This document shows, piece by piece, positions 42,907 to 45,900 of a stretch of 64,000 bases of DNA. Made by a program: the position numbers and the translations under genes. The notes beneath the pieces are model-generated. The model made no database searches. It saw only the letters and a list, made by a program, of their open reading frames with translations, and was not told the origin of the DNA. Position 1 is the first letter of the stretch, and every line of letters starts with the position of its first letter. The DNA comes from an uncultured Actinomycetes bacterium. GTDB taxonomy: Bacteria; Actinomycetota; Thermoleophilia; Gaiellales; Gaiellaceae. Location of the stretch: the NCBI GenBank assembly GCA_963837265.1, contig CAWIMQ010000003.1:14694-78693 (forward strand), written 5' to 3'.

Positions 42907-45900
42907 ATGAGCTTCCGGCTCTCCCCCCAGCAGGAGCTCCTCTGGTCGACCGACGCCGAGGGGCCGCCCGGCTCGAACCGGGCGACGGTCCTGCTCGACG
43001 GCCCGCTCGACCCGGAGCGGTTGCGCGACGCGCTGCGCCGCGTGGTCGCGCGCCACGAGATTCTCCGGACCACGTTCCAGCGCCGGCCGGGCATGCGCAC
43101 CCCGCTGCAGGTCGTGCGCGACGATCTCGACCCCGAGTGGGAGACGCCCGAGCCAGGGCAGAGCGAGACTCCCCGGCCGTGGGACTTCGAGGAAGGCCCG
43201 CTCGTCAGGGCGGCGCTCGTGCCGGTCTCGGCGGATCGGCACCTGCTCCGGCTCGCGGTCCCGGCCGTGTGCGCCGACGCGGCGTCCATCGCCACGATCG
43301 TGCGCGAGGTGGCACAGCACTACGGCGGCGCCGCGCCGGCCGAGGATCAGCTCCAGTACGCGGACTTCGCCGAGTGGCAGCACGAGCTGCTCGCCGCGGA
43401 CGACGACGAGGCGAGGGCGGGCAAGGAGTTCTGGGCCGAGCACGATGCCGGAGCGTCGCCGGCGGTCCCGTTCCTGCGCCGCCCGGAGTCACCGCGGCCG
43501 GTCGAGACGGTTGACGTCCCACTCGCCGCGGGAGCGCTGGGCGACATCGACCGGGCCGCCGTGCGCTACGGGCTGACGAGCGCAGCGTTCGTCCAGGCGG
43601 CCTGGCATGTCCTGGTCGGCCGCCTGGCCGGAGACGACGAGCCCGTCGTGGTGACCGTCTCGGGCGAGCGCCAGCACACCGAGCTCGAGAGCGCCGTGGG
43701 CGCGTTCATCAGGCGGCTGCCGCTCCGGTCGCGCCTCGCCGATGATCCGACCTTCGCGGAGGTGGCGACGCAGCTGCTGCACGCCGGCGAGCTCGCGGCG
43801 CGCTGGCAGGACTATCTGCCCTCGGACGCCTCCGCGGATCAGCCGGTCGGCTTCTCCTCGACGGAGCCGTTCGAGCCGACGGACGCGGGGGAAACGCGGT
43901 TCTCGCTGGAGGACCATCACGGCCGAGGACGTCACGACCCCGCTCTCGCTCGACTGGACGCCCGTCGCCGGCGGCCGGGCTCGGATCCGCTTCGACGCCG
44001 CCGCAATCGAGCGGCCTCACGCCGAGCGCATGGCGCACTACCTCGGCCGCGTGCTCGCGGCTGCTTCAGCGCGGCCGGAGATCCCCGTCGGAGAGCTCGA
44101 GCTGCTGGACGCCGAGGAGGTCCGGCGGCTGACCGTCGAGGTCAACGCCACCACCGCTCCGGCTGCGCCCGCGCTGGTGCACGAGCGCTTCGGCGCTGCA
44201 GCGGCGGCCGCCGGCGACCGGCAAGCGGTCGCGGACGAGACCTCGAGCATCGACTACGCCGAGCTCGACGTCCGGGCGAACCAGCTCGCCGCCAGGCTCC
44301 GCCGAGCCGGTGTCGGACCGGACGTCGTCGTCGGCCTCTGCACCGATCGGTCGATCGACATGGTCGTCGGGGTGCTCGGCATCCTCAAGGCCGGCGGCGC
44401 GTACCTGCCGCTCAACTTCGAGCACCCGCCTGCGCGCATCGAGCACCAGCTTCGGGAGACCGCCTCGCCGGTGGTCGTGGCGCAGGAGGCCGTCCTCGAC
44501 CGGCTGCCCGCCTTCGACGGCGAGGTCGTCTGCCTCGATCGCGACCGTGCGAGCCTCGATGCCGAGCCGGCCGAGGCCCCGGAGCCGGTCGGCTCCCCCG
44601 ATGACCTCGCCTACGTGATCTACACCTCCGGCTCGACGGGCACCCCGAAGGGGGTGGGCGTCACCCACGCCAATCTCGTCAACTACGTCGACGCGATCGC
44701 CTCGCAGCTGGGAGCCGACGAGGAGCCGCTCGCCTTCGGGATGGTGACCGCGATCTCGACCGACCTCGGGAACACGGCCGTCTTCCCGTCGCTCCTGACC
44801 GGCGGCACGCTCGTCCTCGTCAGCCCGCCGGCCGCGGCCGACGCGTCGGCCATGGCCGCGTTCGCGCAGGCACATCCCATCGACGTCCTCAAGATCACGC
44901 CGTCCCACCTGAGCGCCCTGCTCGCCGGCCCCGAGGCCGCCGGCATCCTCCCGCGCCGGTGGCTCGTCGTGGGCGGCGAGGCGCTCTCGTGGGATCTCGC
45001 CGCGCGCGTCCAGGAGCTCGGCGGCTGCCGCCTGCTCAACCACTACGGGCCGACGGAGACGACGGTCGGCTCGTGCACGATGCCCGTCGACGACGGAGCC
45101 GGCCGGTTTGCGCCGGTGACGGTGCCGATCGGGCGCCCGCTCGCCAACACGGCCTGCTACGTCCTCGACCCGCGCGCCCGGCCGGTCCCGGAGGGGGTCC
45201 GAGGCCAGCTCTTCATCGGGGGCGCGGGAGTCGCCCGCGGCTACGTCGGACAGCCCGAGCTGACCGCGGAGCGGTTCGTCGCCGATCCGTTCGCAGGTGG
45301 AGACGCCCGCATGTACGCGACCGGCGACCTCGCGCGGCGACTCCCCGACGGGACGATCGAGTTCCTCGGACGTGCCGACGACCAGATCAAGATCCGCGGC
45401 TTCCGGGTCGAGCCCGCGGAGATCGAGGCTGCTCTGCGCAGGATCGAGAGCGTCCAGGACGCCGTCGTCCTCGCCCCCGAGGACGGCCGCGGCGAGCGCC
45501 GGCTCGTCGCCTACGTCGCGTCGGAGCAGGGCCCGGAGCAGGACGAGCTCCGGCGCAGGGTCGCGGAATGGGTGCCAGAGGTGATGGTGCCGTCGGCATT
45601 CGTCGTGCTCGACTCGTTTCCGCTGACGCCGAGCGGCAAGGTCGACCGCGGCTCGCTCCCGGCGCCCGAGGAGGCCCAGGCCGCGGACGCCCGGGCGTAC
45701 GTCGCCCCGCGCACGCCGACGGAGGAGGCCGTGGCGGCGATCTGGACGGACGTGCTCGGCCTCGAGCAGGTGGGCGTCGAGGACGACTTCTTCGCACTCG
45801 GCGGCCATTCGCTGCTCGCGACCCAGATCGTCGCTCAGATCCGAAGCGACTTCTCGGTCGACCTGCCGCTGCACGCGCTCTTCGGCTCGCCGACCGTCGC

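Follow-up and report, generated by a model that had tools for sequence, protein, structure and literature searches.

Interface (I) domains are said to have been described by Reitz and colleagues in 2019 in the nonribosomal peptide synthetases (NRPSs) of beta-hydroxy-Asp and beta-hydroxy-His siderophores. Such a domain normally partners a Fe(II)/2-oxoglutarate beta-hydroxylase of the TauD type, which it is proposed to position on the carrier-bound residue. Another degenerate condensation (C) domain, the X domain of the glycopeptide antibiotic NRPSs (PDB 4tx2 and 4tx3), lies between the last thiolation (T) domain and the TE domain and recruits the Oxy P450s. The second His of the HHxxxDG motif has an established role in peptide-bond formation. 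A profile for I domains is included in antiSMASH 8 (PMC12230676). Published experiments on what the I domain does disagree, as far as the account in PMC13638107 goes. According to that account, the I domain heading the glidomide module is indispensable for hydroxylation of the carrier-bound His by the stand-alone dioxygenase GlmF (Chen et al. 2022, Angew. Chem. e202203591, via PMC13638107), whereas the N-terminal I domain of MxgB, which comes after a protein with C(-dioxygenase) at its end, is dispensable for hydroxylation in myxoglucamide biosynthesis (PMC13638107). Dispensability in the latter system implies another, structural role (PMC13638107).

The window, by which we mean the whole 64-kb stretch of DNA that was analysed, comes from an uncultured high-GC actinobacterial lineage. 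The first-pass annotation had reported two paralogous single-module proteins, and Pfam and ORF reading bear this out, with a C-like/A/T layout for both. Gene A (38206..41355, plus strand) and gene C (42889..46039, plus strand) are 46% identical, and each encodes an I-type domain, an adenylation (A) domain for Asp and a T domain. Gene C probably begins at the ATG at 42889 (MQEEATMSF..., as in homologues P0002 and P0003), with the ATG at 42907 as the alternative. Its Pfam order is Condensation (PF00668, residues 24-292, E 1.4e-37), AMP-binding, AMP-binding_C and PP-binding. The C-superfamily domain, supported by Pfam, AlphaFold2, Foldseek and clade placement, occupies 42907..44185 of the plus strand (about 425 aa, the end being approximate); the A domain (44198..45640, plus strand; AMP-binding E 7e-80, with AMP-binding_C) and the T domain (45728..45916, plus strand; GGHSL) follow. 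Gene A starts with GTG at 38206 and has the same architecture, with its A domain at 39552..40941 of the plus strand (Pfam and code derivation). Re-derivation against the GrsA-PheA positions returned the Asp code DLTKVGHVGK for both A domains, as first read.

Each of these genes is preceded by a canonical C domain, so that the module order in the window is C / I-A(Asp)-T. Gene B (41352..42910, plus strand) is a stand-alone C domain by Pfam and motif, with HHIAYDAS at 41889 and one frameshift at about 42400; at its start it overlaps the gene A stop (GTGA), and at its end it runs into the start of gene C. Upstream of gene A, NRPS1 (24628-33197; C-A-T-C-A-T-C) ends in a C domain with HHIASDGWS (31798..33197, plus strand; motif and ORF reading), which probably serves gene A in trans. 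Genes A and C thus resemble elongation modules whose C domain has been split off. The suggestion that they are starter scaffolds is only partly apt: both copies follow a C domain that ends the previous protein or stands alone. Moreover, a starter (lipo-initiation) C domain would have an intact HHxxxDG, which these domains lack, and NRPS1 has a separate HH-bearing N-terminal C domain at 24748. The cluster also holds a Thr module (code DFWNVGMVHK), a sulfotransferase gene, ST1 (33216..34268, minus strand; Pfam), and a second, fragmented sulfotransferase-like gene with a P-loop/PAPS motif (46946..47915, minus strand; Pfam). The right end of the window falls inside a TE domain.

In gene C, the site of the C3 motif (43243..43302, plus strand) reads LLRLAVPAVCADAASIATIV, with PAVCADA in place of HHxxxDG. 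A phmmer alignment with Txo2 sets PAVCADA opposite HHIVSDG; both His are gone and the Asp is retained. The absence of the motif had been noted at first reading for a frame uninterrupted from 42889 to about 43910, and this held: within the ORF at 42889..44604 the frame is open up to 43911, which places the motif in about 1 kb of unbroken frame, and the one frameshift of the gene, a +1 change between ...FSLE and TITAEDV..., lies at 43911..43913 (plus strand; ORF and frame comparison). No HHxxxDG occurs in the other two plus-strand frames between 43150 and 43400. With these frames empty and the substitution common to homologues, a normal motif hidden by a frameshift in gene C is ruled out. The gene A site (38590..38660, plus strand) reads LLVLTVAAA joined to CVDAASLGIVAREL in a two-frame reading. 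Here the earlier claim of a His-less motif (VAAACVDA) stands as to both His, since no His codon occurs at the site in any frame, but the motif as such is confirmed only across a frameshift that falls within it. Gene A has at least five frame changes in its first 500 nt or so (38206-38690) and one at about 40562.

That sequencing errors mask HHxxxDG, or that the locus is a decaying pseudogene array, is what the frame changes every 0.3-2 kb over the whole window, in all kinds of genes, might suggest, together with the frameshift in the gene A motif. We nevertheless regard artefact or decay as very unlikely. The gene C motif lies in unbroken frame, and more than 30 independent homologues from several phyla share the His-less xxCADxx motif, several of them with intact ORFs of 1100 aa; because it is kept so widely, loss of the catalytic motif is not a chance event. 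A noisy long-read assembly explains frameshifts in every gene better than decay does, and the closest relatives are contigs from long-read MAGs or metagenomes, with likewise fragmented gene calls. The window frameshifts are probably assembly errors. With so many frameshifts in the window, the cluster might not be functional in this particular copy.

The gene C domain is a C-superfamily member without HHxxxDG, and specifically without its second His. Foldseek assigns the C-domain fold to its AlphaFold2 model (pLDDT 90.7, pTM 0.89), Txo2 matching at E 7e-33 and an X domain standing at rank 3 of the structural matches. The X domain is likewise a degenerate C-type domain, but it closes the last module at the C-terminus, and the window domains stand N-terminally before an A domain; Pfam found no P450 among the window ORFs, and the X-domain sequence score (5.7e-20) is no better than that of ordinary C domains. 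By position, then, the glycopeptide X domain is not the right identity. In a PDB search with a TauD-linked Pseudomonas I domain, no solved structure could be singled out as an I domain, and the "special condensation domain" of HtmB2-CT (8z0q/8z0r) was not specifically closer. None of the NCBIfam models that matched was specific to the I domain, only generic NRPS models. A profile search of 1.84 billion representatives gave 221,289 matches, the best 150 of which were all multi-module NRPS proteins of 4-8 kaa.

Neighbour-joining trees were built from 107 C-type domains, with TauD-linked sequences collected in this analysis, not curated subtype sets, as references. Both window domains fall in a clade of His-less N-terminal domains (bootstrap 88-100), and within it in a high-GC Actinomycetota (Solirubrobacterales-like) subclade. 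In the first tree the I clade had 88/100 and the Actinomycetota subclade 85/100; in the second, of 60 replicates, the values were 100% and 90%. None of the C domains that carry HHxxxDG, whether from the window or from 40 loci, groups with these two, a placement that would make the two I domains. The phylogenetic check proposed at first pass thus set them not with ordinary C domains but with TauD-linked His-less domains. His-less members share FRLSPQQxxLW, RHEILRT...PGMxxPxQV, xxCADAx and QYADFAEWQHE, which sets them apart from canonical C domains at these loci, and their C1, C4 and C5 motifs are also changed in a family-specific way.

These data bear on whether the domains could be ordinary starter or LCL C domains whose active site has relaxed but which remain able to catalyse acylation or peptide-bond formation. 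Their N-terminal position in the protein fits such a role, as do their best PDB sequence matches, which are the ordinary C domains of Txo2 and TycC, and two loci (L039 and L038) have I-A-T genes without an upstream C domain. With both His missing, the family-specific changes in C1, C4 and C5, the split from all HH-bearing C domains and an active C domain encoded next door, we find this scarcely credible.

Outside the Actinomycetota, clade members (Acidobacteriota, cyanobacteria, Pseudomonadota) have TauD (PF02668) directly upstream, either as a gene of its own or as a fusion to the C domain with which the upstream NRPS ends, and at every TauD-linked locus the upstream protein ends in a C domain. 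The A domains behind the His-less domains carry codes for Asp (DLTKxGHVGK), His (DSALIAEVWK) or Glu (DAKDLGVVD). Apart from frameshift-garbled reads and L006a, the actinobacterial copies carry Asp codes, and such codes also occur in TauD-linked Pyrinomonadaceae copies. TauD followed by a His-less domain before an Asp, His or Glu A domain is the published I-domain arrangement. The domains of genes A and C share its position, N-terminal and before an Asp A domain with a C domain upstream. Phylogeny, genomic association with TauD and A-domain substrate together support the interface-like identity that had been proposed for them.

The window has no partner hydroxylase, whether joined to the upstream C domain or beside it. 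It extends 38 kb leftward and 18 kb rightward from the I domains; across all of it, tblastn with nine TauD queries gave no match at E<1e-3, hmmsearch --max over all six-frame ORFs gave no TauD hit at E<=10, and Pfam found no oxygenase in the remaining ORFs. The statement that the window lacks an Asp beta-hydroxylase gene was therefore correct. The similarity of gene B to the C part of the C-TauD protein of L016 (47%) is equalled by that of another window C domain (48%), so the resemblance is not diagnostic of kinship with hydroxylase-fused C domains.

The related high-GC loci resemble the window. L004, L005, L006, L010 and L043 also have the triad I-A-T / C / I-A-T, with intact ORFs of 1104, 538 and 1105 aa in L004. 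No TauD was found in 14 of 16 of these loci (including L001-L006, L010 and L039-L044), most of them viewed to +/-10 kb. Among the 14, L039 is an apparently whole, compact cluster, and L001 and L041 reach beyond the TE and formyltransferase end. The gene is present in two loci of the same actinobacterial subclade, 2.6 kb upstream and together with ST1 in L038 and 3.8-6.8 kb off in L045. L052, a high-GC relative that falls outside the actinobacterial subclade in a further tree, has TauD directly adjacent.

A canonical I-domain/hydroxylase system, with a TauD-type Asp beta-hydroxylase encoded outside the window, would yield a product with beta-OH-Asp that the sulfotransferases might O-sulfate. 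The I-domain family is otherwise tightly linked to TauD, the gene is not always adjacent in high-GC relatives (as L038 and L045 show), and in L015 a single TauD appears to serve four I-A-T modules. The hydroxylase could lie past the right end of the window, where the cluster is cut within the TE domain, or elsewhere in the genome. Set against this are the 64 kb devoid of any TauD fragment and the 14 related loci in the same state, and on balance we hold a distant hydroxylase to be possible but rather unlikely.

We favor the reading, at a probability of roughly 55%, that the window domains are catalytically dead I domains on Asp modules that lost their hydroxylase and were kept for a structural or docking role. 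On this reading, the A domain of each gene would activate L-Asp and load it onto the T domain, as its specificity code and motifs suggest. The I domain, which in the structure model keeps the C-domain fold, would not be expected to form a peptide bond because both His of HHxxxDG are missing. Condensation would be supplied in trans, by the terminal C domain of NRPS1 for gene A and by gene B for gene C. The C / I-A-T order seen here is the canonical C(-TauD) / I-A-T of beta-hydroxy-Asp, -His and -Glu modules minus the hydroxylase; the lineage presumably descends from a beta-OH-Asp module. The I domain may have been kept as a platform for the A domain and as a docking face that brings T-bound Asp to the trans C domain. 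Most likely, such domains would serve as scaffolds without catalysis or would dock a C domain that acts in trans. L038 and L045, with TauD 2.6-6.8 kb from I domains of the same subclade, count against loss of the hydroxylase.

Like the siderophore I domains, the window domains have a C-superfamily fold without the catalytic His, stand N-terminally and directly before an Asp A domain, and follow a protein ending in a C domain; with the TauD-linked members found here they share sequence signature and clade. They differ in that no fused or stand-alone TauD is adjacent or in the 64 kb, in that the C domain upstream of gene C is the free-standing gene B, in their uncultured high-GC actinobacterial host, and in a cluster with sulfotransferases in which no siderophore hallmarks were seen. 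As in glidomide, the I domain heads its module, but the substrate is Asp, not His, and no hydroxylase is encoded nearby. The N-terminal placement is also that of MxgB, whose dispensability for hydroxylation suggests a structural role similar to the one favored here, but myxoglucamide keeps a dioxygenase domain, fused to MxgA, and its substrate is Glu.

The I domain could also have become uncoupled from beta-hydroxylation and serve as a docking module for some other trans partner, the gene B C domain or ST1, which we consider improbable. If it docks gene B, it would be a protein-level "split module" connector. Recruitment of another tailoring enzyme, ST1 or otherwise, in the way that the glycopeptide X domain recruits P450s, is quite unlikely in our view. 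Eight actinobacterial I-domain loci carry an ST1 homologue, the 31 loci L007-L037 have none, and the X domain ranks high among the structural matches, though it matches no better than ordinary C domains do. Asp, however, has no hydroxyl or amine for sulfation unless hydroxylated beforehand, and the Thr module is a more ordinary sulfate acceptor; ST1 is also present in L038, where TauD occurs, and the co-occurrence may only reflect the common ancestry of one cluster family. With either partner, gene B or ST1, I domains would prove to be general recruitment platforms and not hydroxylase-specific adaptors.

The I domain itself is of a known kind, and the variant here is C / I-A(Asp)-T with no hydroxylase in the window. 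If the favored reading is right, a conserved I-A(Asp)-T lineage with no hydroxylase nearby would make predictions based on I domains wrong, and it would be a natural test of I-domain function without a hydroxylase. The finding also flags an uncharacterised family of sulfotransferase-bearing NRPS clusters in uncultured Solirubrobacterales-like bacteria. ST1 is conserved in this family and absent from the hydroxylase-linked loci of other phyla. Candidates for a conserved unknown gene downstream of I-A-T resolved otherwise: the "unknowns" of L001 and L002 proved to be NRPS pieces read in the wrong frame, and L004:13229 is a second sulfotransferase.

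The window has a G+C content of about 72%, and a tblastn search with gene C, the second of two paralogous single-module NRPS genes, showed that one large NRPS cluster fills it from about 24.6 kb onward, the window ending inside a TE domain. The frame of gene C (forward strand) stays open between 42889 and 43911, after which the gene runs on in the +1 frame through 46039; its Pfam matches are Condensation (E = 1.4e-37), AMP-binding (E = 7e-80), AMP-binding_C and PP-binding. Its paralog, gene A (forward strand), starts with a GTG codon at 38206, just after an AAGAGGA box, and extends to 41355; the two share the same domain architecture and are 46% identical across 749 residues. 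Between them lies gene B (41352 to 42910, forward strand), a free-standing canonical C domain with HHIAYDAS at 41889; this gene overlaps the gene A stop (GTGA) at its 5' end and the gene C start at its 3' end. The upstream synthetase NRPS1 (24628 to 33197, forward strand) has the order C-A-T-C-A-T-C, leaving its terminal C domain free to pair with gene A. At 55179 to 56497 (reverse strand), between two NRPS genes, is a gene that combines a CHRD domain with an unassigned region bearing esterase-like motifs.

The first-pass annotation held that genes A and C begin with condensation-like domains devoid of HHxxxDG, placed ahead of Asp-type A domains. Both parts of this description stood. In a phmmer alignment, gene C reads PAVCADA (43243 to 43302) opposite HHIVSDG of the teixobactin synthetase Txo2, so that both His residues of the C3 motif are lost and the Asp is retained; neither of the remaining two forward-strand frames holds a hidden HHxxxDG at this site. 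The gene A equivalent, LLVLTVAAA / CVDAAS, is joined over a frameshift within the motif, and no His codon is available there. Every other C domain of the window has HHxxxD. The ten-residue codes, re-derived by mapping onto GrsA-PheA positions, are DLTKVGHVGK in both A domains, one residue off the classical Asp code. The two N-terminal domains would thus be unable to condense, and we give small weight to the notion that they are still-active C domains.

Frame-plot analysis and Viterbi frame calling revealed that the reading frame of almost all genes, whether NRPS or non-NRPS, changes every 0.3 to 2 kb (from a few hundred bases up to a few thousand), with examples at 28521/28522, 29644, 30054, 32038, 40559, 42403, 43911, 48936, 50396 and 60607 to 62965. 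The first 500 nt of gene A require at least five, and from 34553 to 38686 the shifts are dense enough to erase the coding signal. Amid the frameshifts across all window genes, an IS21-like element is apparently intact: its gene pair (7202 to 9249, forward strand), encoding an istA-like protein of 433 aa and an istB-like protein of 254 aa with a P-loop, appears undamaged and is surrounded by heavily frameshifted polysaccharide-synthesis genes. Because the shifts are spread over every gene, and the nearest relatives are long-read MAG or metagenome assemblies with gene calls just as fragmented, they are probably errors of noisy long-read assembly rather than decay. Near-identical tandem glycosyltransferase-like genes (18344 to 19936 and 20017 to 21051, forward strand), which have long identical peptide stretches in common (SRLSRELGKPWIA...RKLRQEFPELADRPIVSIP...), reflect either a genuine duplication or faulty assembly.

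That the His-less motif is itself an artefact likewise receives small weight; a protein search returned a largely metagenomic family at 30-50% identity, all members of which have xxCADxx instead of HHxxxDG and an N-terminal FRLSPQQ. In members whose sequence runs on, the A domain that comes next bears the same AISTDLGNT motif. Scanning a single genome for each species yielded 35 loci, and JGI metagenomes another 17. The nearest relatives are Solirubrobacterales and other Actinomycetota MAGs; other members come from Acidobacteriota (Pyrinomonadaceae among them), cyanobacteria (Nostoc and others), Pseudomonas, Massilia and Pseudoduganella. When 107 C-type domains from the window and these loci (321 columns) were placed in a neighbour-joining tree, the His-less domains, including both from the window, split from all HH-bearing domains at 88/100 bootstraps, and an Actinomycetota subclade (85/100) includes both window domains. 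With four loci added, these groupings appeared in 100% and 90% of 60 replicates, respectively. The His-less domains have clade-specific forms of motifs C1, C2+, C3, C4 and C5. A confident AlphaFold2 model (pLDDT 90.7, pTM 0.89) has a generic C-domain fold, with Txo2 and a glycopeptide X domain as top Foldseek matches amid many C domains.

At loci from outside the Actinomycetota, an NRPS protein begins with the His-less domain, and directly upstream is either a gene of about 340 aa or an extension at the C terminus of the preceding C domain; both are TauD, the Fe(II)/2-oxoglutarate hydroxylase family (PF02668, Pfam E = 1e-41 to 1e-48). L016:3-1481, for example, is a C-domain end fused to TauD, and in all TauD-linked loci the upstream protein terminates in a C domain. 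This arrangement is the one reported for interface (I) domains and their partner hydroxylases by Reitz et al. 2019, as cited in PMC12971057 and PMC7100376, and it makes this a family known since 2019. [quoted passage not shown] 2022, as cited in PMC13638107, and dispensable according to PMC13638107. The codes of the A domains that follow these domains are DLTK[LI]GHVGK for Asp (L008, L013, L016), DSALIAEVWK for His (Nostoc, Pseudomonadota, L017) and DAKDLGVVD for Glu (L007, L014). The clade shared with TauD-linked domains and these Asp, His and Glu codes support the interface-domain-like reading proposed in the first-pass annotation. An Acidobacteriota MAG locus, L015 (OY969112.1:525806-546855), has four I-A-T modules and one TauD gene, with two Asp codes and two unfamiliar ones (DARAASQMT, DARSLSLMTK).

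No hydroxylase gene was found in the 64-kb window, as had been claimed: tblastn with nine TauD queries gave nothing at E<1e-3, hmmsearch --max over all six-frame ORFs gave no TauD at E<=10, and Pfam detected no oxygenase of any kind among the remaining ORFs. In the actinobacterial lineage the genes are arranged as C | I-A(Asp)-T, and the I-A-T | C | I-A-T triad recurs in L004 (intact ORFs of 1104, 538 and 1105 aa), L005, L006, L010 and L043. Given the terminal C domain on the upstream protein at all TauD-linked loci, the order in the window is the canonical one minus the hydroxylase. We favor, at slightly better than even odds (roughly 55%), a lineage that lost the hydroxylase and retained the I domain as an A-domain platform and a docking face for a C domain acting in trans; condensation would be supplied by gene B and the NRPS1 terminal C domain. 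A hydroxylase encoded elsewhere is possible but rather unlikely. It would accord with two loci of the same subclade, L038 (TauD 2.6 kb upstream) and L045 (3.8-6.8 kb off), which are scattered among TauD-less members in the trees, with the single TauD gene that accompanies four modules in L015, and with the extent of the sequence, the window stopping inside a TE domain and most related loci covering 10 kb each side. Within that coverage, however, no TauD was found in L001-L006, L010 or L039-L044, and L039 is an apparently complete compact cluster. In the high-GC relative L052, TauD directly adjoins the I domain; L052 falls outside the actinobacterial subclade in a later tree.

Small weight also goes to a new partner for the I domain. 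A sulfotransferase gene, ST1 (33216 to 34268, reverse strand), is conserved in the cluster family, with homologues in eight actinobacterial loci and none in L007-L037; hydroxylase-linked loci from other phyla lack it. A second sulfotransferase gene (46946 to 47915, reverse strand) also lies inside the NRPS cluster. This conserved, hydroxylase-less, sulfotransferase-associated actinobacterial version of the I domain is new and of moderate interest. Also conserved are an SDR gene (22763 to 23578) and a LuxR-A-T-TE gene (34237 to 37732, reverse strand), divergent from gene A. In the latter, a LuxR/GerE-type HTH is apparently fused to the N terminus of an A-T(-TE) NRPS-like protein, an unusual regulator-synthetase fusion seen also at L001:5370-8213 (intact, 947 aa, GerE + AMP-binding + PP-binding), L039:1-101 and L041:4695-7845. 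The stand-alone C domains paired with these I domains, in gene B (41889) and its L001-L006 counterparts, have in common an unusual C3 motif, HHIAxDAxSD, with Gly replaced by Ala and Trp lost, and form their own clade at a weak 59/100. Related clusters encode a free-standing formyltransferase along with an ABC exporter (L039:8935-11137; L001:17415-18305; L041:21636-21992); in L039 the I-A-T gene has no C domain ahead of it and comes right after the formyltransferase gene.
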